Source of the DNA: an uncultured Allomuricauda sp.
GTDB lineage: Bacteria > Bacteroidota > Bacteroidia > Flavobacteriales > Flavobacteriaceae
DNA length: 64,000 nt
NCBI GenBank assembly: GCA_947258355.1
Contig: CAMYIC010000059.1
Location: forward strand, 65,648-129,647
Direction of reading: 5' to 3'
In this document: in pieces, positions 2,224 through 50,321 of the stretch
Numbering within the stretch: the stretch's first letter is position 1
Layout of the letters: every line of letters starts with the position of its first letter
Notes under the pieces: generated by a model
The model's input: the letters and a program-made list of their open reading frames with translations, nothing else
Database searches by the model: none
What the model was told of the DNA's origin: nothing
Program-made: the position numbers and the translations under genes

Positions 2224-5112
2224 TTAAAACCACTTCCTAGTGAATAGCCCAACAAGTGTTCTTGGGCTTATGGTCACTACAAAACGAATACGTTGACCAT
2301 AGTCATCCTCTGCAATTTCCCAACCCCTATTGGAATAAACGGGGAAGTACAGCTCAAAATAATCAGTCACCAAATTCAGTCGTATTCCAGAGTCATAAAC
2401 AAAACGTGCACTATCGCCTTTGTTTTTTAAAAACCCGAGATCACCGTAAGCTTCGACCCACCTCCAAATATTGGTGCTTGCATTGGTGGTGGCAATCCAA
2501 TCATTGGCAAATGGATTTTCGAGCTTGGATTTAAAACCACCCTCGGCAATAATTACTTGTTGACTGTATAAACCGGAATCTTCAGATCTACCCAAATAGG
2601 CAAGGTCGAACATATAATCTGTTGGCCTATCCAAGGCGAAACTGAAAAAGTCGGACTCGGTCTTGTTTCGTAAAAACTTACCAGCATAAAAGCGCAGGTT
2701 CAATTGCCTATTGCTTTGAAACAGTTTTCGATACTCCAGTTCAAAAGCAAGTTTGGTAAATTCGCTGGAATGCTGTGCATCTACCGACCAAGAGGAGTAG
2801 TTGAGTATGTTGTTGTCCACATCGGTGTAACGAACATTCATGACGCCATAGTCGGGATCCGTGTCCAATTCACCTATCAAGCTATCGTCGATGCTCCTAA
2901 AGACACTTCTATACCTTAACAAGAGAAATTGCCTCCTGTTAGAAAGCAAGTCGTTGGGTCTCCAACCGAAACTTACGGCAGGGGTCAATGTAGAGAACCG
3001 AGAATTTTCCTGAAAATGGGAAGTGGATGCAGAAAAAGAGTAATTGGTCACATATAAACCTGTTTTTTTATGATACTTACGGTACCTAAAACTGGCTTTG
3101 CCCACTAAAGTGCGTTCCAAGAACGAATAGGTGGGTGAAATATCATATTGGAATGGTCTTTCCAAAAATGTTTTGTTGTAAAGTCTAAGACCGGGTGTTA
3201 TACCATCATACAGGTTGAAATTTGCGATCGGCACATAAAAAACCTGATTATAATATGGGTCCTCGGTATCCTTAAAAAATTGAAATTTCAACTTTTTGTT
3301 ACTGGAAAAGAATCCGTTTAAGGTCTTCCAGTTATCGCGTTGGTTGAATTCGGGAATTTTTTGATCATAGTTCAGTACCAAGCGATCTTCGCTTTTTCGA
3401 GGAATGGTAATGCTTTTGGTAGTGTCGATATCCGTAAACCAATAGCGGGACACAACAGAATCATTTTCAAGCCCAAAAACAGATATGGGTACATTGGTTC
3501 CCTGTTTGTTCTTTAGAACAAAAGTGATGGAATCATCTGTCTTTTCAATTCTCTTGATTTTATAATCAATTTTGTTATCGGTAGAGACGTATTCATCAAA
3601 GAACCAATCCACATCCTTATCAGCGTATTTTTCTATCGTTTTTCTAAAATCAGCAGCGGTCACCTGCTGTTTTAGTTTGTGATTTTTATAAAAATCCAGA
3701 ACAGTACTGTCAATTTTGTTTTCACCCAAAAAGGCGGACAGGTAGGACATTCCAAGACCGGCTTTATAACCATTGGCTATTTTCTGGTTGAACTTGATTA
3801 AGGAATCATTGGAGGTGGTCAATGCCTGATCGATATTTTTTCGAGCAGAGAGCATACTGAAGAGTGCGTACTGTTCGTTAAAATCCATTTGTGCAAAATG
3901 GAAATTTTTTATCCCCCATATTTTAGAAAGTTTCCCGGCCAGTTTTTTATCGGGGTAGTGCTCATCAACATATTTTATCATAAGATAAAAACCGATGGCG
4001 TCGTTTACCCATCGCTCTTTTCGTGGGTCCAGATACAGGGATTCTTTTAAATAATTACGAATGGCTGTTTTTAAGAACTTCATTTCAAATTGAAATTGTT
4101 CTTCGTATGGCCTAATAAAAGAGGGTAGTTGGCTTATTCCATAAAGCGGGGATTTGTTATAGTCAAATTCACTTACAAGAAGATTGTCGTGGGGATAGTT
4201 CCCTAAATTTTCATGAAGAAATTGAGCTATTTTATTTATGGATATTCCCTGTGTGATTTCCTCATATTTGTTGGACTCGATATCTGTTGTAATTGTTATG
4301 TAACTGGTAACATGTTGGGTAAACCTGTCATCGATTGTTAGAATAAGCTCACAGTTTTTTCTTTTGTCACCAAAAAGCTGGACATGTTGCCCTCCCGGAA
4401 AACTTGAAACACTGGACATCCTGTAATTTGAGGCTAGGAATAGGTTTTCAGGATAAGTAAAATTGATTCTTGTCTCGGTGACATCGGTATAGAGGTCATC
4501 TAGATTTATATTGTTGTATAACTTCCAATCCCCATCGAAAACGGCTGGTGTAAAGTACCAATCTTTTAAATTGAATCCGCGACTGTTTGTATGTCCGTAT
4601 CCCGTAAATTTTGCTTCGGGCAGCCTTATGGTATAGGTGAAAAATAATTGGATTGATTCACCCGGTTTTAGAATTTCGTTTAAGGTAACGGAAATAATAT
4701 CCATATTCCCTTCTCTTTTCCAGTCCAGTCCGGTATAGTTTTCATCTACAATGGTTCTGATGGTGGTTTTACCTCTCTCCCTATCTTTTGCCAAATGAAG
4801 GCTTCGGTTGAATTCTTCCGCAAACCTTTTGGCAAGCGCGGTGTTCTTATTGGAATAGGCATGGTTCCAATCGTTGAAATATAAAGTGGAAAGTCCCCGG
4901 TTTGATTGATTGGTGTATGTAAAATGTTGTTTGATCCGTATTTGATTGGTGGGGCCATCGAGAGTTGCCACTATTTCGTTTTTGTGCTGCCCTAAAAGTT
5001 TAGGGTGCACCATAGTGACAAGAAGCAAAACGCTAAGTATTACTCGAGGGTTAATCAATGCAAAACAATAATTAAAAGTTTGGACTGAGTGTTCGGCCTT
5101 TGTAAAAGGCAT
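2224..5112 (-). CDS. Large exported protein of unknown function; the N-terminal half resembles an M1 aminopeptidase-N fold but has no HEXXH, and the C-terminal third looks beta-rich and ends in Phe
   Basis: 962-aa ORF. It has a hydrophobic signal-like segment (ILSVLLLVTMVHPKLLG). The segment ERWVNDAIGFYLMIKYV resembles the WLNEGFA.Y region of M1 peptidases, but I found no HEXXH or GAMEN. The C-terminus ...LFTRKWF is OMP-like. The annotated start overlaps the upstream gene by 41 nt, so the true start may be internal or non-ATG. Confidence 0.6.
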   Translation of the reverse strand: MPFTKAEHSVQTFNYCFALINPRVILSVLLLVTMVHPKLLGQHKNEIVATLDGPTNQIRIKQHFTYTNQSNRGLSTLYFNDWNHAYSNKNTALAKRFAEEFNRSLHLAKDRERGKTTIRTIVDENYTGLDWKREGNMDIISVTLNEILKPGESIQLFFTYTIRLPEAKFTGYGHTNSRGFNLKDWYFTPAVFDGDWKLYNNINLDDLYTDVTETRINFTYPENLFLASNYRMSSVSSFPGGQHVQLFGDKRKNCELILTIDDRFTQHVTSYITITTDIESNKYEEITQGISINKIAQFLHENLGNYPHDNLLVSEFDYNKSPLYGISQLPSFIRPYEEQFQFEMKFLKTAIRNYLKESLYLDPRKERWVNDAIGFYLMIKYVDEHYPDKKLAGKLSKIWGIKNFHFAQMDFNEQYALFSMLSARKNIDQALTTSNDSLIKFNQKIANGYKAGLGMSYLSAFLGENKIDSTVLDFYKNHKLKQQVTAADFRKTIEKYADKDVDWFFDEYVSTDNKIDYKIKRIEKTDDSITFVLKNKQGTNVPISVFGLENDSVVSRYWFTDIDTTKSITIPRKSEDRLVLNYDQKIPEFNQRDNWKTLNGFFSSNKKLKFQFFKDTEDPYYNQVFYVPIANFNLYDGITPGLRLYNKTFLERPFQYDISPTYSFLERTLVGKASFRYRKYHKKTGLYVTNYSFSASTSHFQENSRFSTLTPAVSFGWRPNDLLSNRRQFLLLRYRSVFRSIDDSLIGELDTDPDYGVMNVRYTDVDNNILNYSSWSVDAQHSSEFTKLAFELEYRKLFQSNRQLNLRFYAGKFLRNKTESDFFSFALDRPTDYMFDLAYLGRSEDSGLYSQQVIIAEGGFKSKLENPFANDWIATTNASTNIWRWVEAYGDLGFLKNKGDSARFVYDSGIRLNLVTDYFELYFPVYSNRGWEIAEDDYGQRIRFVVTISPRTLVGLFTRKWF

Positions 5113-5778: not shown

Positions 5779-8640
5779 TTAAACTGCTCGTGCAATTTTT
5801 TGTTTTGTATTGTCCAATTCTTTCTTTAAAAACTTCGCGGTATAACTTTTCTTGTCCTTGGCCACTTCTTCGGGGGTACCTGTTGCAACGACCATTCCAC
5901 CGCCTCTTCCCCCTTCGTAGCCAATATCGATGATATGATCCATCATTTTGATCACATCCATATTGTGTTCTATTACTAAAATGGTGTTCCCTTTATCCAC
6001 CAAACGTTCTAGCACTTCCATGAGAACTCGAATATCTTCAAAATGTAAGCCTGTGGTCGGTTCGTCGAGGATGTAAAATGTGTTTCCAGTATCTCTTTTG
6101 GAGAGCTCTGTTGCCAATTTTACTCGTTGGGCCTCTCCACCAGAGAGGGTAGTGGATTGCTGCCCTAATGATATATAACCCAAACCTACATCTTTTATTG
6201 TCTTAAGTTTACGATGAATTTTTGGAATATTCTCAAAGAAATCCACAGCTTCATTGATGGTCATTTCCAAGACATCTGCAATGGACTTTCCCTTGTAGCG
6301 GATTTCCAAGGTCTCCCTATTGAACCTTTTTCCGTTGCAAGTCTCACATTCCACATAAACATCTGGCAAAAAGTTCATTTCTATAACCTTGAGTCCTCCT
6401 CCTTGACAGGTTTCACACCTTCCACCTGCCACATTAAAACTAAATCTTCCAGGTTTATAGCCTCGTATGGTAGCTTCGGTAGTTTTAGCAAAAAGCGAAC
6501 GTATTTCACTAAAAACCCCAGTATAGGTTGCAGGATTGGAACGTGGCGTACGACCAATAGGGGACTGGTTGATATCGATTACCTTATCGATATGCTCCAA
6601 CCCCTTGATTTTTTTATAGGGCATCGGTTTTTTAACACCGTTAAAATAATGGGCGTTCATAATCGGGTAAAGAGTTTCGTTAACCAAAGTGGATTTGCCA
6701 CTTCCTGAAACGCCGGTTACTCCAATCAGTTTTCCCAAAGGGAAGTCTACCGTCACATTCTTTAAGTTGTTGCCCGTGCAACCTGAGAGCGTAATTTTTT
6801 TGCCCGTTCCCTTACGTCGTTTTGCCGGTACCGGGATTTCAACTTCTCCAGTTATATACTGTGCTGTCATCGTATGGTGGTCAATCAACTCTTTGGGGCT
6901 TCCTTCGGAAATGATTTCACCACCGTGTTTTCCCGCTTTTGGGCCAATATCGATAACATGGTCGGCACTTTCGATCATATCACGGTCGTGCTCTACCACA
7001 ATAACAGAATTCCCAATATCACGAAGCGATTCCAGGGAATGAATCAATCGTTCATTGTCCCGCTGGTGCAGGCCAATACTTGGTTCATCCAAAATGTAGA
7101 GTACGCCAACCAATTGCGAGCCGATCTGAGTGGCCAGTCTAATCCGCTGTGCTTCACCACCTGATAACGATTTTGAACTTCGGTTCAAGGAGAGGTAATC
7201 AAGCCCTACATCCAGCAAGAAACCAACCCTTGCCTTGATTTCCTTGATAATTTCCTCGGCAATTTTCTTTTGGTTGCCCTCCAAAGTATCCTCCAAATGT
7301 TTGAATAAATTGGCAAGCTCAGCAATGTCCATGTGAGCCAATTCGGCAATGTTTTTGCCATCTATCTTAAAGTAGAGTGACTCTTTACGTAAACGGGAAC
7401 CTTCACAAGCGGGACATTCCACTTTGTCCATGTAATCCTTCGCCCATCTTTTAATGGAAGTGGAGTTGGCTTCTTCGTATTGTGTTTTGATGAAGTTGGA
7501 AATTCCTTCGTAATCAATCTTGTATTGTCTTTTGACCCCTAGACTTTTGGAGTCCACCTCAAAACTTTCCTTGCCGCCGTTCAAAATAACATCCATGGCT
7601 TCGGCCGGTACTTTTTCTATCGCATCCGAAAGGTCGAAATTGTAGCGTTGCGCAATGGTTTCCAGTTGTTTGAAGGCCCAAGACTTTTTGTATTCACCTA
7701 GAGGGGCAAGCCCTCCGGATTTGATGGATATTTTTTTGTTCGGGATGATTTTATTCTCATTGACTTGAAAAACATGCCCCAATCCACTGCATTCAGGACA
7801 CATGCCTTTTGGAGAGTTAAAGGAAAACGTGTTGGGCTCGGGAGTGGGGTAGGAGATGCCCGATGACGGACACATCAAATCCCTACTGAAATATCTTGGT
7901 ACCGATTCGCCTTCTTCCAACACCATGAGCACATTGTCACCGCTGTACATGGCCGTGTTGATGGTTTCGCTCAGCCGTTTATGGAAATCTTCACTATGGC
8001 CGACTTTCAAGCGGTCGATTACAATCTCAATATCGTGGGTTTTGTATCGGTCAACCTTCATTCCTTTGGTGATGTCGGTAATCTCCCCATCGACCCGCAC
8101 CTTTACAAAACCTTGCTTTGCAATCTGTTCAAACAATTCGCGGTAATGTCCTTTTCTTGACTTAATGACAGGAGCCAGCACATTGATTTTCTTGTCCTTG
8201 TACGACTCAATGATTAAATCCTTGATCTGTTCATCGCTGTAGCTTACCATTTTTTCACCAGTGTTGTAACTGTAGGCATCGCCAGCACGAGCAAACAACA
8301 ATCGTAAAAAGTCATACACTTCGGTTATGGTTCCAACGGTAGAGCGAGGGGATTTTGAAGTGGTTTTCTGTTCAATGGCGATTACAGGTGAAAGTCCATC
8401 GATTTTATCCACATCGGGGCGCTCCAATCCACCCAAAAACTGCCGGGCGTAGGCAGAAAAGGTTTCAATGTACCTACGCTGTCCTTCCGCGTAAATGGTA
8501 TCAAAGGCCAAAGAGGATTTTCCACTTCCCGAAAGTCCCGTGATTACCACCAGTTTTTCACGGGGTATGGTAACATCTATATTTTTCAGGTTATGGACCC
8601 TTGCGCCCTTAACCTCAATATTTTCTTCGTAATTGATCAT
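5779..8640 (-). CDS. uvrA: Excinuclease ABC subunit A
   Basis: 953 aa. Two ABC modules with Walker A motifs [14 protein letters not shown] and [14 protein letters not shown]. The LSGGEAQR signature occurs twice. Cys-pair zinc modules are present ([32 protein letters not shown]). Confidence 0.97.
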
Positions 8641-8740: not shown

Positions 8741-8810
8741 TGTCACCTCGAGCGCAGTCGAGAGGTGCTTGTTTATCCAATGTTGGGTCTCGACTGCGCT
8801 CGACCTGACA
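8741..8810. repeat. REP-like imperfect hairpin element, full copy 1
   Basis: Left arm TGTCACCTCGAGCGCAGTCGAGAGGTG (8741..8767); right arm GGTCTCGACTGCGCTCGACCTGACA (8786..8810). The 16-nt cores TCGAGCGCAGTCGAGA and TCTCGACTGCGCTCGA are exact reverse complements. The same cores recur at 50245..50321 and, as a half copy, at 11587..11611. Confidence 0.85.
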
Positions 8811-9352: not shown

Positions 9353-10162
9353 TCAAACCGCTTCCTTCTTCTCACTTAAATACTTCCAATAGCGTTTTGG
9401 AACGTGTTGTGTATGTAATTTAGGGTTGATACGCGACGCAATATAGGTACTTTTAAAATAATCGTTCCAAAGGGTTTGGTATTCATATTCCTCATTGGTA
9501 AAGGCATCATTTTTAACCGTTTTGTTATAGTGGATATCCTTTAAATTCAGGGATACCATCTCTACATGGTCCAAATCGTAATAAATGCCATACTTGCGTT
9601 TCACATCATATATCAACCATTTTTGGTCAGCGTAGCGGTCACGAAAATGTTTGGAAATTAACGGTAGCACATCAAAATCAGGTTCAATGTTTGCAAAGTA
9701 GATTTCGTCCTTGGTCAATTGGAACCGAACAAAAGCCTCCATTCGGTGTTTCTCCCGTCCCACTTTTCTGGCCAGCTGTGCTATGTAGAGCACTGTGGAG
9801 TCAGAATAATCCAAATACTTGCCATTTTTGGTGCGCATCAATTTTTGGATGTAGGAGTAAAGCATCATTTCCACGCCTTCTGCTTCACTTAAAAAAGCAA
9901 AATAGACATTGGAAATCGCATTGTGGCTTTTATTGCGGACACCGTTCCAAACACGTTTGGCTTTTTCCACATGGGTGAAAACGGTCTCTGTATCAGAAAA
10001 CAATCCGCTTTGGGTTTGATCGTTCTTTTGGATGTCGGCTACATTGATTTTTTCATCAAAGGCGACAAATACGGCGGTCAAGAATCCGTTAAAGCTACCG
10101 TCATAAACTAAGGTTGTTGAAGCATTCATAGCGCTTGCATTTTTTGTTTCTTTCAATGTCAA
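9353..10162 (-). CDS. DUF4130 / TIGR03915-type putative DNA-repair protein, the usual partner of the radical-SAM protein upstream
   Basis: 269 aa, lying 17 nt downstream of the radical-SAM ORF on the same strand. The pairing and size match my recollection of the TIGR03915/TIGR03916 gene pair. No UDG-like C-terminal extension is present here. Confidence 0.7.
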   Translation of the reverse strand: MTLKETKNASAMNASTTLVYDGSFNGFLTAVFVAFDEKINVADIQKNDQTQSGLFSDTETVFTHVEKAKRVWNGVRNKSHNAISNVYFAFLSEAEGVEMMLYSYIQKLMRTKNGKYLDYSDSTVLYIAQLARKVGREKHRMEAFVRFQLTKDEIYFANIEPDFDVLPLISKHFRDRYADQKWLIYDVKRKYGIYYDLDHVEMVSLNLKDIHYNKTVKNDAFTNEEYEYQTLWNDYFKSTYIASRINPKLHTQHVPKRYWKYLSEKKEAV

Positions 10163-10179: not shown

Positions 10180-11442
10180 TTAATTGAACAATGACAATTG
10201 TGTACTGTACTGATTCCTAAATTTTCCCGAGGAATTCTGTAGAATCATACCTTTAATTTTATCCGCATCCAGATCACGGCGTTCCCAGTGCCGGGAATCG
10301 CATACCATAAAATATTGGGCACGGTTGAGGGCCACACCAATCTTTTTGAGGTGGTCCCAGTTCAGTTTTCTAAATTTCCTGGCTTTTACAATTTTGTCAA
10401 CCGACCGCATTCCAATACCCGGAATTCGGGCCAGTAGTTGTTTGTCGGCCGTATTTATATTCACAGGAAAATGGTGCAGGTTGCGCAAGGCCCACGAGAG
10501 CTTTGGATCTACATCCATATCCAGGTTGGGATGCTGGTTGTTCAAGATTTCTCCAATGGAAAAGCCGTAAAAACGCAATAGCCAATCCGTTTGGTACAAT
10601 CGGTTTTCACGTAACATAGGTACTTGGGAACCAATGGCCGGCAAGCGGGAATCATGGGTTACTGGAACATAACCGGAATAATATACACGCTTCATATTGA
10701 AGGTTTTATAGTAATAGGTCGCGGAATACATAATATCCTTATCCGATTCTCCCGAAGCTCCCACAATCATTTGAGTACTTTGTCCTGCCGGGGCATATTT
10801 TGGTGTAGTCTTTATGATTTTTCGCTCTGATTTGTAACGTACAATTTCATTTTTCACCTTTTCCATAGGTTTGGTGAAATCTTCATGTTTTTTGTCCGGT
10901 GCCAATAATTTTAATCCTGAGATGGTAGGAACTTCGATGTTTACAGAAAGTCGGTCGGCGTACAATCCAGCTTCGTACATTAATTCATCGCTGGCCCCAG
11001 GAATGGATTTTAAATGGATATAGCCGTTGAAATTTTCTTCTTCGCGCAGTTTTTTGGCAACGGCCACCAAACGTTCCATGGTGTGGTCGGGACTTTTGAA
11101 AATCCCGGAACTCAAAAAAAGCCCTTCGATATAATTTCTGCGATAAAAATTGATGGTGAGGTCTACCACTTCCTGTACCTTGAAAGCGGCCCTCGGGACA
11201 TCATTACTTTTTCGGGTTACGCAATAGGCGCAATCAAAAATACAATGGTTGGTCAATAGGATTTTTAATAAGGAAACACATCGGCCATCTGCTGTATAGC
11301 TATGGCATATTCCCATTTTGGAAGCATTTCCCAATCCTTTGGTTTTATTCGTTCGGTCACTGCCACTACTTGCACAAGAGACATCGTATTTGGCAGCATC
11401 TGCCAATATGTTCAGTTTTTCTCTTATTCGTTCAAAATTCAT
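10180..11442 (-). CDS. Putative DNA modification/repair radical SAM protein (TIGR03916-like) with a C-terminal helix-hairpin-helix
   Basis: CxxxCxxC cluster motif CIFDCAYC and an HhH-like LLARIPGIGMRSVDKIV. The ORF track starts at a TTG (11460) inside a palindromic operator-like site. The ATG at 11442 (MNFERIREKL...) is the more plausible start. Confidence 0.88.
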   Translation of the reverse strand: MNFERIREKLNILADAAKYDVSCASSGSDRTNKTKGLGNASKMGICHSYTADGRCVSLLKILLTNHCIFDCAYCVTRKSNDVPRAAFKVQEVVDLTINFYRRNYIEGLFLSSGIFKSPDHTMERLVAVAKKLREEENFNGYIHLKSIPGASDELMYEAGLYADRLSVNIEVPTISGLKLLAPDKKHEDFTKPMEKVKNEIVRYKSERKIIKTTPKYAPAGQSTQMIVGASGESDKDIMYSATYYYKTFNMKRVYYSGYVPVTHDSRLPAIGSQVPMLRENRLYQTDWLLRFYGFSIGEILNNQHPNLDMDVDPKLSWALRNLHHFPVNINTADKQLLARIPGIGMRSVDKIVKARKFRKLNWDHLKKIGVALNRAQYFMVCDSRHWERRDLDADKIKGMILQNSSGKFRNQYSTQLSLFN

Positions 11443-11445
11443 AAC

Positions 11446-11524
11446 TTGGAAATATTCCAATCAAAAATATGGAAATAATCCAATAAATGGAAATAATCCA
11501 TAAAAGTTTTTGGAAATATTCCAA
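11446..11524. promoter_or_regulatory. Cluster of four operator-like 15-bp palindromes in the divergent promoter region
   Basis: Perfect TTGGAAATATTCCAA at 11446..11460 and 11510..11524. Degenerate ATGGAAATAATCCAA at 11469..11483 and ATGGAAATAATCCAT at 11487..11501. Start-to-start spacing is 23/18/23 nt, symmetric about about 11485. Confidence 0.7.
11462..11469 (-). promoter_or_regulatory. Candidate Bacteroidota -7 box (TATTTTTG on the minus strand) for the radical-SAM operon
   Basis: Plus-strand CAAAAATA is TAnnTTTG on the minus strand. It sits about 20 nt upstream of the ATG at 11442, between operator copies 1 and 2. Confidence 0.45.
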
Positions 11525-11530
11525 AATAGC

Positions 11531-11538
11531 TATATTTG
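11531..11538 (+). promoter_or_regulatory. Candidate Bacteroidota -7 box (TATATTTG) for the LexA-like repressor gene
   Basis: Exact match to TAnnTTTG, 6 nt downstream of the perfect palindrome at 11510..11524. Confidence 0.45.
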
Positions 11539-11586
11539 AGAATGGATTGTCTGTCTGGTTGCTTTCGAGAATAATATGTTGCTAGA

Positions 11587-11611
11587 TGTCTCGACTGCGC
11601 TCGACATGACA
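11587..11611. repeat. REP-like element, half copy (right arm only; the left arm is decayed)
   Basis: TGTCTCGACTGCGCTCGACATGACA matches the right arms at 8786..8810 and 50297..50321. Upstream, ..gctttcgagaat.. looks like a left arm with an internal deletion. Confidence 0.75.
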
Positions 11612-11622
11612 TTATTGAATTG

Positions 11623-12378
11623 ATGATGGAAAATGAAATAACCCTAAAAAGATTTACCGATATCCGCAGGGAGCTTGGCTACACCCAAACTGAGTTCGCC
11701 AAATTACTGGGGGTTAAAAATACCACGGCCGACATAGAGCGGGGGAGAACCAAGCTTTCTGGTAAAGTAGTGGCTGAACTTTTGAAGCAGTTCAAGATTA
11801 ATCCATTGTGGTTGTTCGGTGAAAGTGATCAAAAGCATTTGGATACCTCCAAAACCAGTGTTATTCCTAAAGTGGTCACTGTTGATAATTCCGATAATGA
11901 CAACATGGTGATGGTAAATGCCAAAGCTGCGGCAGGGTATCCACAGAATATTTCTGATACAAGTTGGTATAGGCAGTTGCCCGCTTTTGATATGCCCATA
12001 CCTGAGTTCCGTAATGCGACCTATCGTGGTTTTCAGGTGGAAGGGGATAGTATGTTGCCCAATTTAAGACCCAACGATTGGGTGTTGGCACGTGCTATTG
12101 AGCATATAGACCATGTGAGCCCCAATAAAATGTATGTGGTGGTATTACAAGATTCCGTGATGGTGAAGAAAATAGAGCGCAAGCCCAATTCCAATAACAT
12201 CACCTTGGTTTCCTTAAACGAAACCTACCCGCCTTACGAAATCAAACCCTTTCAAATTCAAGAGATTTGGGAGGTGAGCAGTAAGTTGACCTTTAATGTT
12301 GACGCAACTACCGAAACAGGCCTTTTAAAGCAACTACAGCAGTCCATGGAAGAGTTGAAAAAGCAGATAGCCAAATAA
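11623..12378 (+). CDS. LexA-like autocleavable repressor (XRE-type HTH plus S24 peptidase domain)
   Basis: N-terminal HTH LGYTQTEFAKLLGVKNTTADIERG. Candidate Ala-Gly cleavage site in VNAKAAAGYPQ. S24 catalytic Ser in VEGDSMLPNL and Lys in SVMVKKIER. The ORF track starts at TTG 11620; ATG 11623 follows immediately. Confidence 0.85.
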   Translation: MMENEITLKRFTDIRRELGYTQTEFAKLLGVKNTTADIERGRTKLSGKVVAELLKQFKINPLWLFGESDQKHLDTSKTSVIPKVVTVDNSDNDNMVMVNAKAAAGYPQNISDTSWYRQLPAFDMPIPEFRNATYRGFQVEGDSMLPNLRPNDWVLARAIEHIDHVSPNKMYVVVLQDSVMVKKIERKPNSNNITLVSLNETYPPYEIKPFQIQEIWEVSSKLTFNVDATTETGLLKQLQQSMEELKKQIAK

Positions 12379-13308: not shown

Positions 13309-14994
13309 TTAATAACCAACCGCTGTATCATCTCCACGTTTATCTGCGCCACCTTCCAATTTTCCGTCGGGCAACACACGAATCGCGTCAACCTTTCCAA
13401 TAATCGGGGTCCGCTCTTCATTGATGATGTACCCTTTGGATTTTAATTCGGCCTTAAGCTCTTCGGAAAAGCCTTCCGGTTCGAAGATCACCATATCAGG
13501 CAACCATTGATGGTGAAAACGGGGTGCGTTCACAGCTTCTTGCATGCTTAGGTTGAACTCATAAACATTCAAGATGGTCTGCGCAACAGCGGTAATTATC
13601 GTAGAACCACCAGGAGTACCCACAACCATGTATAGTTTCCCGTCTTTTTCCACAATGGTCGGGGTCATACTGCTCAGCATGCGTTTTTCCGGTTCAATAC
13701 TGTTGGCTTCGGCACCAATGAGTCCAAACATATTGGGTACGCCCGGTTTGGCACTAAAATCGTCCATTTCGTTATTCAAAAAGAAACCGAGTTCGGCACA
13801 ATATAATTTGGAACCATACCCTCCGTTTAAGGTAGAGGTAGCTGAAATGGCATTACCTTCCCTGTCCACAATAGAATAGTGTGTAGTTTGGGCACTTTCA
13901 ACTATTTCGACTTCACCATGACTAACCTCTGAGGATAAAGTAGCTTTGTCAAAAGAGAAATTGCTCATTCTGTCCTGTAAATATTCATCGTTTAGCAGCA
14001 TATCGTATGGAATGTCCACAAAATCAGGATCACCTAAATAGAAATTTCTATCAGCATAGGCCCTTCGAGATGCTTCGGTGAACAATTGGATGGTTTTGGT
14101 GGAGTTATGTCCATATTTGGCAACTTCGTAAGGTTCCATCATTTTAAATATCTGGTTGATGGTAACTCCTCCGCTGCTGGGTGGACTCATTGAGATTACT
14201 TTAATGCCCTTGTAGTTAAAGACAACGGGGTCTCTCCAGACCGCTTCATATTTTTCTAGATCTTCTTCAGTGATCAAACCTCCATTTTCTTGAACAAACT
14301 TGGCCAGCTTTTGAGCAACTTCGCCCTTGTAGAAACCATCGCGACCTTCTTCCATGATTTTTTGGAGTGTCTTCGCATAGGCAACATATTTTATAGTATC
14401 CCCTGGAGCAAAAGGACCTGCGAACTTGGTACTGTCACCATTGGCTTCAATAAATTGGTCCCTATATCCTTCCAATCGCTTTGCTTGTTTTTCTGTCACA
14501 ACCACGCCTTTGTTGGCAAGTGCGATAATAGGTTCTATGATATCCTTTAATGGAAGTTTTCCAAACTTTTCGTGCACTTCAATCATTCCTGCCACCGTTC
14601 CAGGTACTCCCACAGCGGTTCCTCCCGATGTACTCAAGCCAGGAATTACATTACCCAAGGAATCCAAATACATGTCTTTATGAGCGGCCAAAGGGGCTTT
14701 TTCGCGATAATCGATTCCACCGAATTCGCCATTGCTTTTGCGGTAGACCATAAAACCACCACCACCAACGCTTCCTGCAAACGGATAAGCGACAACGAGG
14801 GAAAGTTCCGTAGCTACCATGGCATCAAAAGCGTTTCCGCCCTTTTTCATAAGATCCACCGCCAATTGTGATGCTTCTTCACGGGCGGATACCACCATGG
14901 CCTTTTCGGCGACCAGTCCAGTAGGTGTTGCTGGTTGTTGCTTACAATTGATAAAAAAGATAAGGGGGAGGAAGAGGAGTACTAGTCTTCGCAT
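13309..14994 (-). CDS. ggt: Gamma-glutamyltransferase (lipoprotein-type signal)
   Basis: 561 aa. Signal with lipobox LIFFINC. Autoprocessing/nucleophile region AQTTHYSIVD. MVVGTPGGSTIITAV near the C-terminus. Confidence 0.93.
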   Translation of the reverse strand: MRRLVLLFLPLIFFINCKQQPATPTGLVAEKAMVVSAREEASQLAVDLMKKGGNAFDAMVATELSLVVAYPFAGSVGGGGFMVYRKSNGEFGGIDYREKAPLAAHKDMYLDSLGNVIPGLSTSGGTAVGVPGTVAGMIEVHEKFGKLPLKDIIEPIIALANKGVVVTEKQAKRLEGYRDQFIEANGDSTKFAGPFAPGDTIKYVAYAKTLQKIMEEGRDGFYKGEVAQKLAKFVQENGGLITEEDLEKYEAVWRDPVVFNYKGIKVISMSPPSSGGVTINQIFKMMEPYEVAKYGHNSTKTIQLFTEASRRAYADRNFYLGDPDFVDIPYDMLLNDEYLQDRMSNFSFDKATLSSEVSHGEVEIVESAQTTHYSIVDREGNAISATSTLNGGYGSKLYCAELGFFLNNEMDDFSAKPGVPNMFGLIGAEANSIEPEKRMLSSMTPTIVEKDGKLYMVVGTPGGSTIITAVAQTILNVYEFNLSMQEAVNAPRFHHQWLPDMVIFEPEGFSEELKAELKSKGYIINEERTPIIGKVDAIRVLPDGKLEGGADKRGDDTAVGY

Positions 14995-47164: not shown

Positions 47165-49336
47165 TTACTTTTTAGCCTCTACCAATTCCAGTTGGTCCAC
47201 GCTTACGTTGGTGGTGAACATACCGTAATTTACCACGGCCTTACCTTTTTCCAGTGTGTCGATGCTGCCTACGGCCTTGCCGTCCATTAAACGCACACGG
47301 TCACCAATTTTAAACACTGGTCGTGGCTTGTTCTTTTCGGCCTGGATTGCCTTTTTCTTTTTGATTTTCTTCTCGACCCGTACTTTCTTGATTTTTTGTT
47401 CCAGCTCTTGGGCCACCTGTTTTTTCTCTTGCTGTTTGGCCTTCGCCTTTTTCGCCGTGGTTTTTTTGCGTTTGCTGTTCTCGGTTTCCACAATTCGAAT
47501 TATCTCCGAGATTAAGGGCCGTTTCTTTTTATCAATAAAGTATTTTTCGGCAGCGGTATTCAATTTGTTTCCCAACTGAATCATACGCTGGTTGTGGTCG
47601 TACAATTCCTGATAGCTCTCCAGCTTGGATTTGATTTTGGAGTTGAGTTTCTCCAATCGTTCATTTTCCTCGCGTGCCTTGGATTCCTCTTCTTTGAGTT
47701 TGGAGCCCGTCTCCACCATTTTGCTGCGTTCTTTTTGAAGTTTCGCAATAGTGGCATCAAAACGGACCTTACCGCGTTCTATCTTCTTCTTGGCCTTATT
47801 GATCAAGGAGTAGGGGATGCCGTTCTTTTGGGCGACCTCAAATGTAAAAGAGCTTCCCGCTTCACCCAAAACCAATTGGAAGGTAGGCTCCAAAGTTTTA
47901 GAGTTGAACAACATATTTGCGTTGGTGGCATGCGGCAGTTCGTTGGCCAAAGCCTTTAAATTGGCATAGTGTGTTGTAATAACTCCGTAAGCTTCCCGTT
48001 CGTAGAAGACTTCCAGAAAAGCTTCGGCCAAGGCACCACCCAATTCCGGGTCACTTCCCGTTCCGAATTCATCGATTAAGAACAAGGTTTTGTCATTGCA
48101 CTTCCTTAGAAAGCGGTTCATGTTCTTCAATCGATAACTGTATGTACTTAAATGATTTTCAATGGATTGATTGTCTCCAATATCTGTTAAAATCTTATCA
48201 AAAAAGCACACAGAACTACGCTCGTGCACGGGAATCAACATGCCACTTTGCAGCATCACTTGAAGCAAGCCAATGGTCTTTAATGTGATACTTTTTCCGC
48301 CCGCATTCGGGCCTGAAATCACAATGATTCGATTCTCTTGATGTAGTTTGATGGTTTGTGGCCAGGTTTTCTCATTCTTTCGTTTGTTCGAAAGAAAAAG
48401 CAGAGGGTGATAGGCATCACGTAGAAACAATTCCCGCTCTTCATTGATTTCGGGAAGCAACCCGTTCATCTCGTTGGCGTATTTTGCCTTTGCTGCGGTA
48501 ATATCGATATCGGACAAATACTTTTGGTATTCCTGAAGTAATTCCAGATAGGGTCTAATCTGATCCGTAAGCTTGTTCAAGATGCGTTGAATCTCCTCTT
48601 TTTCCTCAAATTCGAGGTTGTTGAGCTCTCGGGTGTATGATAGTGTGGCTTCCGGGACAATGTAGACGATGCTTCCCGTTTTGGAAGTGCCCATTACAGT
48701 GCCCTTTACTTTTTTGCGATGCATTGCCTTAACGGCCAGTACCCTGCGATTTTCCATTACTGACTCACGGATTTCATCCAAAAAATCAGAAGATTGATAA
48801 CGTCCCAAGGCAGCGCTAAAACTTTGGTTGATTTTACCACGTACGCTATTGATTTGGCTTCGGATATAACGTAATTCATCCGAAGCGGAATCCTTGATTT
48901 CCCCAAATTTGTCGATTACATCGTCAATGGCATCAGGAATCTCGGGATGTAGCTCCAGGGCATTCACTTTATCAAAAAGCAACGGATAGTATTCCTTGAA
49001 CTTTTTAAAGAATTTCTGATGGATGGCGACAGTCTTGCAGATGCCACCAATCTTTCGAAAACCAGAAATCTCCAAAGTGCTATTGTCAATCTTGAGCAGC
49101 CCCAATTCGCTGTTGATATGGTCGAAACCATGATTGGGAATGCGATTGTCGTTGGAAAAAGAGGCCAGATATTCCGAAGTCTGCCCCAATACTTCCATTA
49201 ATTCGGCTTTGTGGCGGAACGGTTGTATGGTCAGCGCATCTTCTTTGCCCAGTTCCGTATTGCATCGCGAAGCGATTTGAGTCAATACCGTTGGGAACTC
49301 TAGATCTTGAAGTGTTTTGGGGTGAATGTTTCGCAT
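47165..49336 (-). CDS. mutS2: MutS2-family protein (endonuclease MutS2 homolog; no recognisable Smr domain)
   Basis: 723 aa. Walker A ISGPNAGGKSITLK and Walker B LFLIDEFGTGSDP. A K/E-rich linker leads to a short C-terminal KOW/SH3-like module (FKIGDRVRLMDGKAVGSIDTLEKGKAVVNYG). Confidence 0.88.
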   Translation of the reverse strand: MRNIHPKTLQDLEFPTVLTQIASRCNTELGKEDALTIQPFRHKAELMEVLGQTSEYLASFSNDNRIPNHGFDHINSELGLLKIDNSTLEISGFRKIGGICKTVAIHQKFFKKFKEYYPLLFDKVNALELHPEIPDAIDDVIDKFGEIKDSASDELRYIRSQINSVRGKINQSFSAALGRYQSSDFLDEIRESVMENRRVLAVKAMHRKKVKGTVMGTSKTGSIVYIVPEATLSYTRELNNLEFEEKEEIQRILNKLTDQIRPYLELLQEYQKYLSDIDITAAKAKYANEMNGLLPEINEERELFLRDAYHPLLFLSNKRKNEKTWPQTIKLHQENRIIVISGPNAGGKSITLKTIGLLQVMLQSGMLIPVHERSSVCFFDKILTDIGDNQSIENHLSTYSYRLKNMNRFLRKCNDKTLFLIDEFGTGSDPELGGALAEAFLEVFYEREAYGVITTHYANLKALANELPHATNANMLFNSKTLEPTFQLVLGEAGSSFTFEVAQKNGIPYSLINKAKKKIERGKVRFDATIAKLQKERSKMVETGSKLKEEESKAREENERLEKLNSKIKSKLESYQELYDHNQRMIQLGNKLNTAAEKYFIDKKKRPLISEIIRIVETENSKRKKTTAKKAKAKQQEKKQVAQELEQKIKKVRVEKKIKKKKAIQAEKNKPRPVFKIGDRVRLMDGKAVGSIDTLEKGKAVVNYGMFTTNVSVDQLELVEAKK

Positions 49337-49574: not shown

Positions 49575-50240
49575 ATGGACGTAAGCATTGAGCCAAGTTG
49601 GAAAACACAATTGAACAAAGAGTTTGAACAACCATATTTCCAGAAATTGGCTGCTTTTGTAAAGCAGGAATACCAGCAGAACACCTGTTACCCAAAGGGT
49701 AAGGATATTTTTTCTGCCTTTGACCATTGTCCGTTCCAAGAAACCAAAGTGGTCATCATTGGTCAAGACCCTTATCATGGGCCCAATCAAGCGAATGGAT
49801 TGTGTTTTTCAGTGAAAGATGGCGTCCCGCATCCGCCATCCTTGGTCAATATTTTTAAGGAAATCAAAACGGATTTGGAAAAGCCCTATCCCAAAAGTGG
49901 CAATCTGGAACATTGGGCGGAACAAGGAGTGCTCTTGTTGAATGCTACGCTAACGGTTCGCGCACATCAGGCAGGCAGCCATCAGAAAAAAGGGTGGGAG
50001 CAATTTACCGATGCTGTGATCAAAACGGTTTCCAGTGAACTGGAAGGGGTTGTATTTCTGCTTTGGGGAGGATTCGCCAAGAAAAAATCATCCTTGATCG
50101 ATAAAAGCAAACACCATATTTTAACCTCTGGGCATCCTTCGCCTTTGAGCGCCAATCGAGGATTGTGGTTCGGCAATCAACATTTTAGCAAAACAAATAG
50201 CTTATTGGCCAAAATGGGTAAAGAGCCCATTGATTGGTAG
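49575..50240 (+). CDS. ung: Uracil-DNA glycosylase (family 1)
   Basis: 221 aa. Catalytic water-activating loop GQDPYHG and the Leu-intercalation loop HPSPLSA. Confidence 0.95.
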   Translation: MDVSIEPSWKTQLNKEFEQPYFQKLAAFVKQEYQQNTCYPKGKDIFSAFDHCPFQETKVVIIGQDPYHGPNQANGLCFSVKDGVPHPPSLVNIFKEIKTDLEKPYPKSGNLEHWAEQGVLLLNATLTVRAHQAGSHQKKGWEQFTDAVIKTVSSELEGVVFLLWGGFAKKKSSLIDKSKHHILTSGHPSPLSANRGLWFGNQHFSKTNSLLAKMGKEPIDW

Positions 50241-50244
50241 TATG

Positions 50245-50321
50245 TGTCACTTCGAGCGCAGTCGAGAAGTTAATTTAATCATTATTTGATTTGTGCGGTC
50301 TCGACTGCGCTCGACCTGACA
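50245..50321. repeat. REP-like imperfect hairpin element, full copy 2
   Basis: Left arm TGTCACTTCGAGCGCAGTCGAGAAGT (50245..50270); right arm GGTCTCGACTGCGCTCGACCTGACA (50297..50321). It lies between convergent genes and probably also acts as a terminator hairpin. Confidence 0.85.

Follow-up and report, generated by a model that had tools for sequence, protein, structure and literature searches.

Repressors that join an HTH_3 helix-turn-helix domain to an S24 peptidase domain have been described as specific to the Bacteroidetes and named "non-canonical LexA" (Sanchez-Osuna et al., Nucleic Acids Res 2021; PMC8565304, here and below from parts of the article and its supplement). Two LexA boxes are distinguished among them, GGA-N5-TCC, which occurs mostly in Flavobacteriaceae, and the CTAA-N5-TTAG group's box (PMC8565304). 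In this study, we analyze positions 11446–11524 of a 64-kb stretch of contig CAMYIC010000059.1 from an uncultured Allomuricauda sp. (the whole stretch is hereafter called the window), and we conclude that this segment is very probably the autoregulatory SOS operator array of the non-canonical LexA of Flagellimonas (formerly Muricauda).

Electrophoretic mobility shift assays (EMSA) demonstrated that the Salegentibacter protein is specific for GGA-N5-TCC. Binding is lost when either dyad is substituted or the spacer is altered in length, while changes in the spacer sequence or next to the dyads leave it intact (PMC8565304). The regulators bind their own promoters and are induced by mitomycin C, as followed by reverse transcription quantitative PCR in S. 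agarivorans and P. actiniarum (PMC8565304). Their regulon includes the uracil-DNA glycosylase/radical S-adenosylmethionine (radical-SAM) operon COG1573-COG4277, and its size varies, being very small in some clades (PMC8565304).

For the congener M. ruestringensis, Table S5 of that work lists four sites shared by MURRU_RS15645 (TIGR03915) and MURRU_RS15650 (LexA), namely ATTGGAAATATTCCAAT, TATGGAAATGTTCCAAA, AATGGAAATATTCCATA and TTTGGAAATAATCCAAA, at 3469783, 3469806, 3469824 and 3469847, a 23/18/23 spacing identical to that in the window (PMC8565304). Further M. ruestringensis sites are found at the genes for DNA polymerase IV and an SOS-response-associated peptidase (SRAP), which have one site pair in common, and at a PA0069-family radical-SAM gene (PMC8565304). 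The same table gives Maribacter arrays spaced 23/18/19 or 22/18/19, whose last site is a degenerate GTA-N5-TCC, and site pairs 19 bp apart in the dinB, SRAP and PA0069-type radical-SAM promoters (PMC8565304). The array and its motif were already published in 2021, and the window is another Flagellimonas instance of an array catalogued for the genus, from a species that does not appear by name in those sections of the article and supplement drawn on here. A term search of the main text of PMC8565304 returned no "cooperativ*", no "leaderless" and nothing on the spacing architecture of the operators.

The operator array

Sequence reading and a script check both place four copies of the shared 13-mer TGGAAATAWTCCA within 11446–11524, with start-to-start distances of 23/18/23, which bears out the number, coordinates and spacing claimed in an earlier note on this DNA. 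Operator 1 (TTGGAAATATTCCAA, 11446–11460, core GGA-N5-TCC at 11448–11458) and operator 4 (again TTGGAAATATTCCAA, 11510–11524, core at 11512–11522) are the two perfect 15-bp copies that it recognized. Its description of the other two as degenerate does not hold, since operator 2 (ATGGAAATAATCCAA, 11469–11483) and operator 3 (ATGGAAATAATCCAT, 11487–11501) keep a complete core, intact at 11471–11481 and 11489–11499, respectively. The palindrome that it described is likewise real in the 5-bp arms TTGGA/TCCAA but does not extend to the 5-bp spacer AATAT, which is asymmetric and gives a minus-strand match with 3 mismatches. The spacer variants are AATAT and AATAA, and all four operators have the identical orientation. 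The 180 nt that the note assigned to the divergent region apply only when lexA starts at ATG 11623; the intergenic region between the radical-SAM gene and lexA measures 177 nt when TTG 11620 is taken as the start.

The window and the related-locus consensus alike show the GGAAATAW-TCC orientation uniformly and never its reverse complement, so that the operators can be described as direct repeats of an imperfect palindrome.

The four exact matches to TGGAAATAWTCCA compare with about 0.0075 that base composition predicts for the two strands of the 64 kb, and no match with 0 or 1 mismatch occurs anywhere in the window outside the array. Scored with a position weight matrix (PWM) built from orthologous loci only, operators 1 to 4 reach 20.5, 21.6, 20.9 and 25.4 bits, the last being the best score in the window, and the next best match, at 14.2 bits, falls inside a coding region. 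The bare motif GGA-N5-TCC is not enriched (17 occurrences in the window vs. 14.5 expected). The repeated element of this promoter region is GGA-N5-TCC alone, and no classical SOS box (CTGT-N8-ACAG or GAAC-N4-GTTC) was found there. The earlier note was right to place the motif outside the classical LexA boxes, but it missed that GGA-N5-TCC is one of the two Bacteroidetes LexA boxes described in 2021.

Other candidate sites were rejected. The GGA-N5-TCC cores at 410 and 442 are ascribed to chance; they score at most 8.3 bits and lie within apparently continuous coding sequence, which runs past the window edge and is for that reason missing from the list of open reading frames (ORFs). The fifth-best PWM match, AATGGAAGTTTTCCAAA at 14549–14565 (14.2 bits), has an intact core but is probably a chance match as well, being located within the gamma-glutamyltransferase coding region, some 430 nt from its edge.

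Conservation of the array in related genomes

The array was compared across 80 genome loci encoding proteins 84–99% identical to the repressor, from Flagellimonas, Maribacter, Croceitalea, Croceivirga and metagenome-assembled genomes. Upstream sequence was available for 79 of them, and counts out of 80 sequences refer to the window together with these 79 usable loci. The earlier note had named beforehand, as a test, that the palindrome be conserved in front of orthologous repressor/radical-SAM pairs; this test was passed in 79/79 usable loci, all of which carry the array. Operators 2, 3 and 4 are kept in every usable locus and in the window, with 18 bp between operators 2 and 3 throughout and 22 or 23 bp between operators 3 and 4. 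The full 23/18/23 layout is present in 39 sequences, the window included, and the other 41 loci have operator 1 replaced by a half-degenerate GTA-N5-TCC located 19 bp from site 2, as in Maribacter. Column by column, conservation is near-complete at the dyads and high at the −7 promoter boxes, is only about 50% at spacer position 5 and declines outside the array, a pattern that mirrors the mutational profile obtained by EMSA for Salegentibacter LexA.

These data bear on the possibility that the array consists of non-functional tandem duplications or of a chance cluster of AT-rich palindromes. The co-orientation of the four copies, which can be read as two 41-bp units, would suit such an origin. 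We nevertheless find it scarcely credible, given the very small number of matches expected by chance and given that the dyads are nearly invariant in 79 loci while spacer position 5 and the flanks vary, in agreement with the mutational sensitivity seen by EMSA.

The divergent neighbor of lexA is the radical-SAM gene in most loci, and in about 13 it is directly the TIGR03915 gene, as in M. ruestringensis. Synteny with this repair module extends to nearly all 80 genomes and at least four genera, and at 84–99% protein identity this indicates vertical chromosomal inheritance. It is in this context that a prophage or mobile-element immunity region, in which a CI-type repressor and its operators would control a divergent lytic or early promoter with no role in the host SOS response, has to be weighed. 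The repressor has an N-terminal domain of phage CI/XRE type, the placing of several operators between two divergent promoters recalls lambda OR, and distant homologues (38% identity) with an upstream dyad-N5-dyad palindrome exist on viral contigs. Against this, the synteny just described is that of a chromosomal locus, and the neighbors are repair and housekeeping genes (uvrA, an ATP-grasp enzyme, gamma-glutamyltransferase and others), with no phage genes near the array among its neighbors in the window. Moreover, the search of viral contigs returned only distant homologues, at most 38% identical, and no GGA-N5-TCC array. We hold an immunity region of this kind to be very improbable.

One of these viral homologues, on IMGVR_UViG_3300046052_000046, is a 38%-identical helix-turn-helix plus S24 protein preceded by CTTGA-CAAAA-TCAAG (at about 4955–4985 of the retrieved locus), which has the same dyad-N5-dyad layout with other half-sites. 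This layout is compatible with the phage ancestry proposed for the repressor family.

Two of the related loci, L022 and L068, have the array beside the radical-SAM gene yet about 0.7–1.7 kb away from lexA, and L022 retains a second, two-site copy (23 bp apart) beside lexA. This suggests that an insertion split or duplicated the control region. In addition, a conserved ORF of about 50 aa (containing YLERSRNAILNLGYDYVVFKSKLKK) is found in Maribacter/Croceitalea-type loci, on the minus strand at 3755–3904 in L054, 3688–3837 in L066 and L070, 3644–3811 in L069 and about 2400–2640 in some 25 other loci. This ORF either follows the radical-SAM gene closely on its downstream side or is itself the divergent neighbor of lexA, and would therefore be subject to the array as well; the window contains no homologue of it.

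Position of the operators relative to the promoters

Two boxes of the form TAnnTTTG are located where the earlier note had put them. The −7 box of the radical-SAM/TIGR03915 operon occupies 11462–11469 on the minus strand (plus-strand letters CAAAAATA, read as TATTTTTG on the minus strand), and that of the lexA promoter occupies 11531–11538 on the plus strand (TATATTTG). A candidate −33 element of the lexA promoter, as judged from the Bacteroidetes sigma-A consensus, is the TTTG at 11509–11512 (plus strand), which is separated by 18 nt from that promoter's −7 box and partly coincides with the operator 4 left arm. In a map of transcription start sites (TSSs) in Flavobacterium, the TAnnTTTG sigma-A box occupies −12 to −5 (PMC9723704), and because of this placement TSSs are predicted near 11457 on the minus strand for the radical-SAM operon and near 11543 on the plus strand for lexA.

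On these predicted coordinates, operator 1 spans about −1 to +10 of the radical-SAM promoter and would lie over its TSS and 15-nt 5′ untranslated region, in agreement with the earlier view that the left perfect copy covers both. Operator 2 lies at about −14 to −24 of the same promoter, in the promoter spacer and directly upstream of the −7 box, whereas operator 3 falls at about −32 to −42 when counted from the radical-SAM TSS and at about −44 to −54 when counted from that of lexA. In the lexA promoter, operator 4 spans about −21 to −31, between the −33 and −7 elements. The two perfect copies are not functional mirror images, as the left one is downstream of its own box, over the predicted TSS, and the right one is upstream of its box, in the promoter spacer.

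This geometry is strictly kept. A TAnnTTTG box follows the core of operator 4 by 8–9 nt in 79/80 sequences (8 nt in 75), a minus-strand TAnnTTTG box abuts operator 2 in all 80, and a TTTG runs into the left arm of operator 4 in 77/80.

The repressor

The non-canonical LexA gene occupies 11623–12378 on the plus strand and encodes 251 aa from ATG 11623, or 252 aa from TTG 11620. The protein matches PF01381 HTH_3 (E = 8.8e-09, 35.7 bits, cut-off 23) and PF00717 Peptidase_S24 (E = 1.2e-13, 51.2 bits, cut-off 23.3), and among the matches of the 251-aa protein there is neither PF01726 nor a LexA NCBIfam model. The cleavage site Ala104-Gly105 (in KAAAG), Ser143 (in GDSM) and Lys182 (in VKK) are invariant in 20 homologues, and these columns align with the Salegentibacter and Pontibacter proteins. 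The C-terminal 160 residues show a handful of differences from M. ruestringensis WP_014034459.1, and through this near-identical sequence the cleavage and catalytic residues align with lambda CI in the published alignment (PMC8565304). A MAFFT alignment with a C-terminal fragment of lambda CI was set aside in favor of that curated alignment because it misaligned the Ala-Gly and Ser motifs. An extra C-terminal helix is predicted in the 251-aa protein.

Over the C-terminal domain, to which this comparison is confined, the repressor shares 63% identity with Salegentibacter WP_075324850.1, the protein validated by EMSA, and 29% with Pontibacter WP_025606010.1 of the CTAA group, and it groups with the GGA-N5-TCC proteins and not with those of CTAA-N5-TTAG type. 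Several close homologues carry the NCBI label "LexA family transcriptional regulator," and the closest genome matches are Flagellimonas (formerly Muricauda/Allomuricauda), with up to 99% identity (F. profundi). A sequence search of the PDB returned a single match, the generic 70-aa helix-turn-helix protein 8tac (E = 0.0011), and no LexA, CI or UmuD chain. Taken with the published motif and the four-site array of Table S5, the domains and catalytic residues support the proposal of the earlier note that the sites are the operator of an autoregulated Bacteroidota LexA-like (helix-turn-helix plus S24) repressor.

The lexA leader and neighboring genes

Alignment with loci of minimal length delimits a lineage-specific insert of about 80 nt in the lexA 5′ leader (11539–11619, plus strand), which is outside the operator. 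A relic ATG at 11542, today the start of an upstream ORF of 10 codons (MDCLSGCFRE*), immediately precedes the insert. The insert is absent from close relatives with a 97-bp intergenic region, and the uninterrupted state is seen in L014 (F. aequoris), L018 and L020. Leader inserts of 18–218 nt are present in about half of the 80 loci. The gap between the −7 box and the start codon of lexA is only 3–6 nt in 39 of the 77 scorable loci (e.g., L037, L038 and L014), and because of this short distance the ancestral lexA mRNA is predicted to have been, and probably was, leaderless. The insert in the window would then have turned a leaderless lexA transcript into a leadered one. In flavobacteria, leaderless mRNAs make up a minority, amounting to 5.5% in F. 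psychrophilum (PMC9723704). Folded as RNA, the inserted leader shows no clear gain in stability over shuffled sequences (z = −1.3).

The leader also contains a copy of a 23-mer (GTCTCGACTGCGCTCGACMTGAC) resembling repetitive extragenic palindromic (REP) elements, of which five intergenic copies are found in the window where none is expected. The copy in the lexA leader is single (11588–11610, plus strand), and the others form inverted pairs about 45–52 bp apart, at 8742–8764 (minus) with 8787–8809 (plus) and at 50246–50268 (minus) with 50298–50320 (plus). An ORF starting at TTG 8714 is translated through the 8742/8787 repeat pair, and its real start is for that reason probably ATG 8822.

On the other side of the array, the radical-SAM gene lies on the minus strand at 10180–11442; it exceeds its profile cut-off by a wide margin (671 bits vs. 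343.5) and is a regulon member according to PMC8565304. The second gene of the operon, at 9353–10162 (minus), is identified by profile matches as the putative DNA repair gene TIGR03915/DUF4130. Judging by the N-termini of its orthologs, its true start is probably ATG 10129.

Discussion

We show that a chromosomal control region in the window contains four GGA-N5-TCC sites whose occurrence is not random, whose sequence is conserved and whose geometry is fixed relative to two −7 boxes, and that the adjacent gene encodes a protein with the domains and catalytic residues of a self-cleaving repressor. From its orthologues and homologues come specific binding to GGA-N5-TCC, induction by mitomycin C and the orthologous four-site array (PMC8565304).

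In the mechanism that we propose, dimers of the 251-aa HTH_3 plus S24 repressor would occupy the four GGA-N5-TCC sites and fill the core of the divergent promoter region. At operator 1 the repressor would block the predicted TSS and short 5′ untranslated region of the radical-SAM/TIGR03915 operon, and at operators 2 and 3 it would cover the spacer and the −33 region. At operator 4, between the −33 and −7 elements, it would block the lexA promoter, so that both promoters would be shut while the repressor is bound. Upon DNA damage, RecA filaments on single-stranded DNA would stimulate self-cleavage at Ala104-Gly105 via Ser143 and Lys182. Repressor occupancy would then drop, the repair operon and lexA would be derepressed, and renewed lexA expression would reset the system. 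The most economical mechanism would be one in which the repressor sterically occludes the two promoters at the same time and RecA-stimulated self-cleavage lifts the block. The TSSs, the occlusion, the RecA-dependent cleavage and any cooperativity between sites are predicted features of this scheme.

Several observations weigh against such an assignment. Firstly, the sequence upstream of the radical-SAM −7 box offers no good TTTG at a distance of 17–20 nt that could serve as a −33 element. Secondly, the likeness to the EMSA-validated protein is one of C-terminal sequence, and the DNA-binding N-terminal domain falls outside that comparison. Thirdly, the AlphaFold2 model (mean predicted local distance difference test score 52, predicted template modeling score 0.41), obtained from a shallow alignment of 20 sequences that are 85–96% identical, adds no structural support. 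Moreover, the evidence for binding and induction was obtained with orthologues and homologues from other species. Lastly, the PWM scan found no second regulon member in the 64-kb window.

This last point raises the question of whether the protein might be a dedicated local repressor that controls only itself and the adjacent radical-SAM/TIGR03915 operon, with no wider SOS regulon. No other site in the 64 kb scores above 14.2 bits, including upstream of uvrA (5779–8640), mutS2 (47165–49336) and ung (49575–50240); as the earlier note had stated, there is no GGA-N5-TCC site upstream of these three genes, even with one core mismatch allowed. A small regulon would also be in line with the variation among clades, in some of which it is very small (PMC8565304). 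However, the M. ruestringensis motif stands at three more genes, those for DNA polymerase IV, the SOS-response-associated peptidase and the PA0069-family radical-SAM protein (PMC8565304), and M. ruestringensis LexA and the repressor of the window are near-identical in their C-terminal domains. The missing sites at uvrA, mutS2 and ung say little and are no argument against the SOS operator array, because none of the three is among the members of the GGA-N5-TCC regulon reported in the parts of PMC8565304 drawn on here. We consider a purely local repressor improbable. As the 64 kb hold no further site, the status of the window protein as a global SOS regulator rests on its congener M. ruestringensis.

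A more elaborate possibility concerns the spacing. The invariant 23/18/23 layout may be more than a consequence of fitting two promoters together and may reflect a higher-order complex resembling that at lambda OR, in which dimers on the four same-oriented operators would touch one another, perhaps via the extra C-terminal helix, so that the repair operon would be derepressed cooperatively and in a hierarchy with lexA. Together with the ancestrally leaderless lexA, the locus would then be a domesticated switch of the phage-immunity type rather than a set of independent SOS boxes. This idea is speculative, and we think it unlikely to be correct as it stands.

As a discovery, the SOS operator array described here carries little weight, since the repressor family, the box, autoregulation, control of the radical-SAM/TIGR03915 genes and the four-site array of a congener had all been reported in 2021. 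It is of use as a positive control, in that a real, conserved operator and its regulator were recognized from sequence alone. What our analysis adds is the operator/promoter geometry that is strictly kept across at least four genera, the probably leaderless ancestral lexA mRNA and the repeated invasion of the leader by REP-like elements. These additions could guide mechanistic work on how CI-like LexA proteins repress Bacteroidetes sigma-A promoters.

Among known systems, HdiR of Streptococcaceae and UmuDAb of Acinetobacter are also S24-family repressors other than LexA that came to control DNA-damage regulons, but they belong to other lineages and have other DNA-binding domains and motifs, and UmuDAb requires the co-repressor DdrR. 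With phage lambda CI and OR the window shares the CI-type helical helix-turn-helix plus S24 arrangement and the presence of several operators between divergent promoters. The cI mRNA from PRM is leaderless, and the predicted ancestral lexA mRNA resembles it in this respect. In contrast to lambda, the window locus is chromosomal, its divergent partner is a DNA-repair operon where lambda has cro, both the half-sites and the rigid N5 spacer are different, and the locus gives no sign of positive autoregulation or of cooperative contacts between dimers.

With canonical LexA, represented by the E. coli box CTGT-N8-ACAG, the logic is the same, that is, a self-cleaving S24 repressor, autoregulation and several operators over core promoter elements; the E. 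coli lexA gene itself has tandem boxes. The window protein differs in being HTH_3/CI-like instead of having the winged helix-turn-helix PF01726, it falls outside the TIGR00498-type class, and its motif is unrelated. Closest are the GGA-N5-TCC LexA proteins, with which the window shares the architecture (HTH_3 plus S24; Ala-Gly, Ser, Lys), the motif, autoregulation, the family Flavobacteriaceae, the regulated neighbor (TIGR03915/TIGR03916, COG4277) and, in M. ruestringensis, the same four-site 23/18/23 array. There is no essential difference from that group, to which the window adds the lexA leader insert of about 80 nt with its REP-like repeat.

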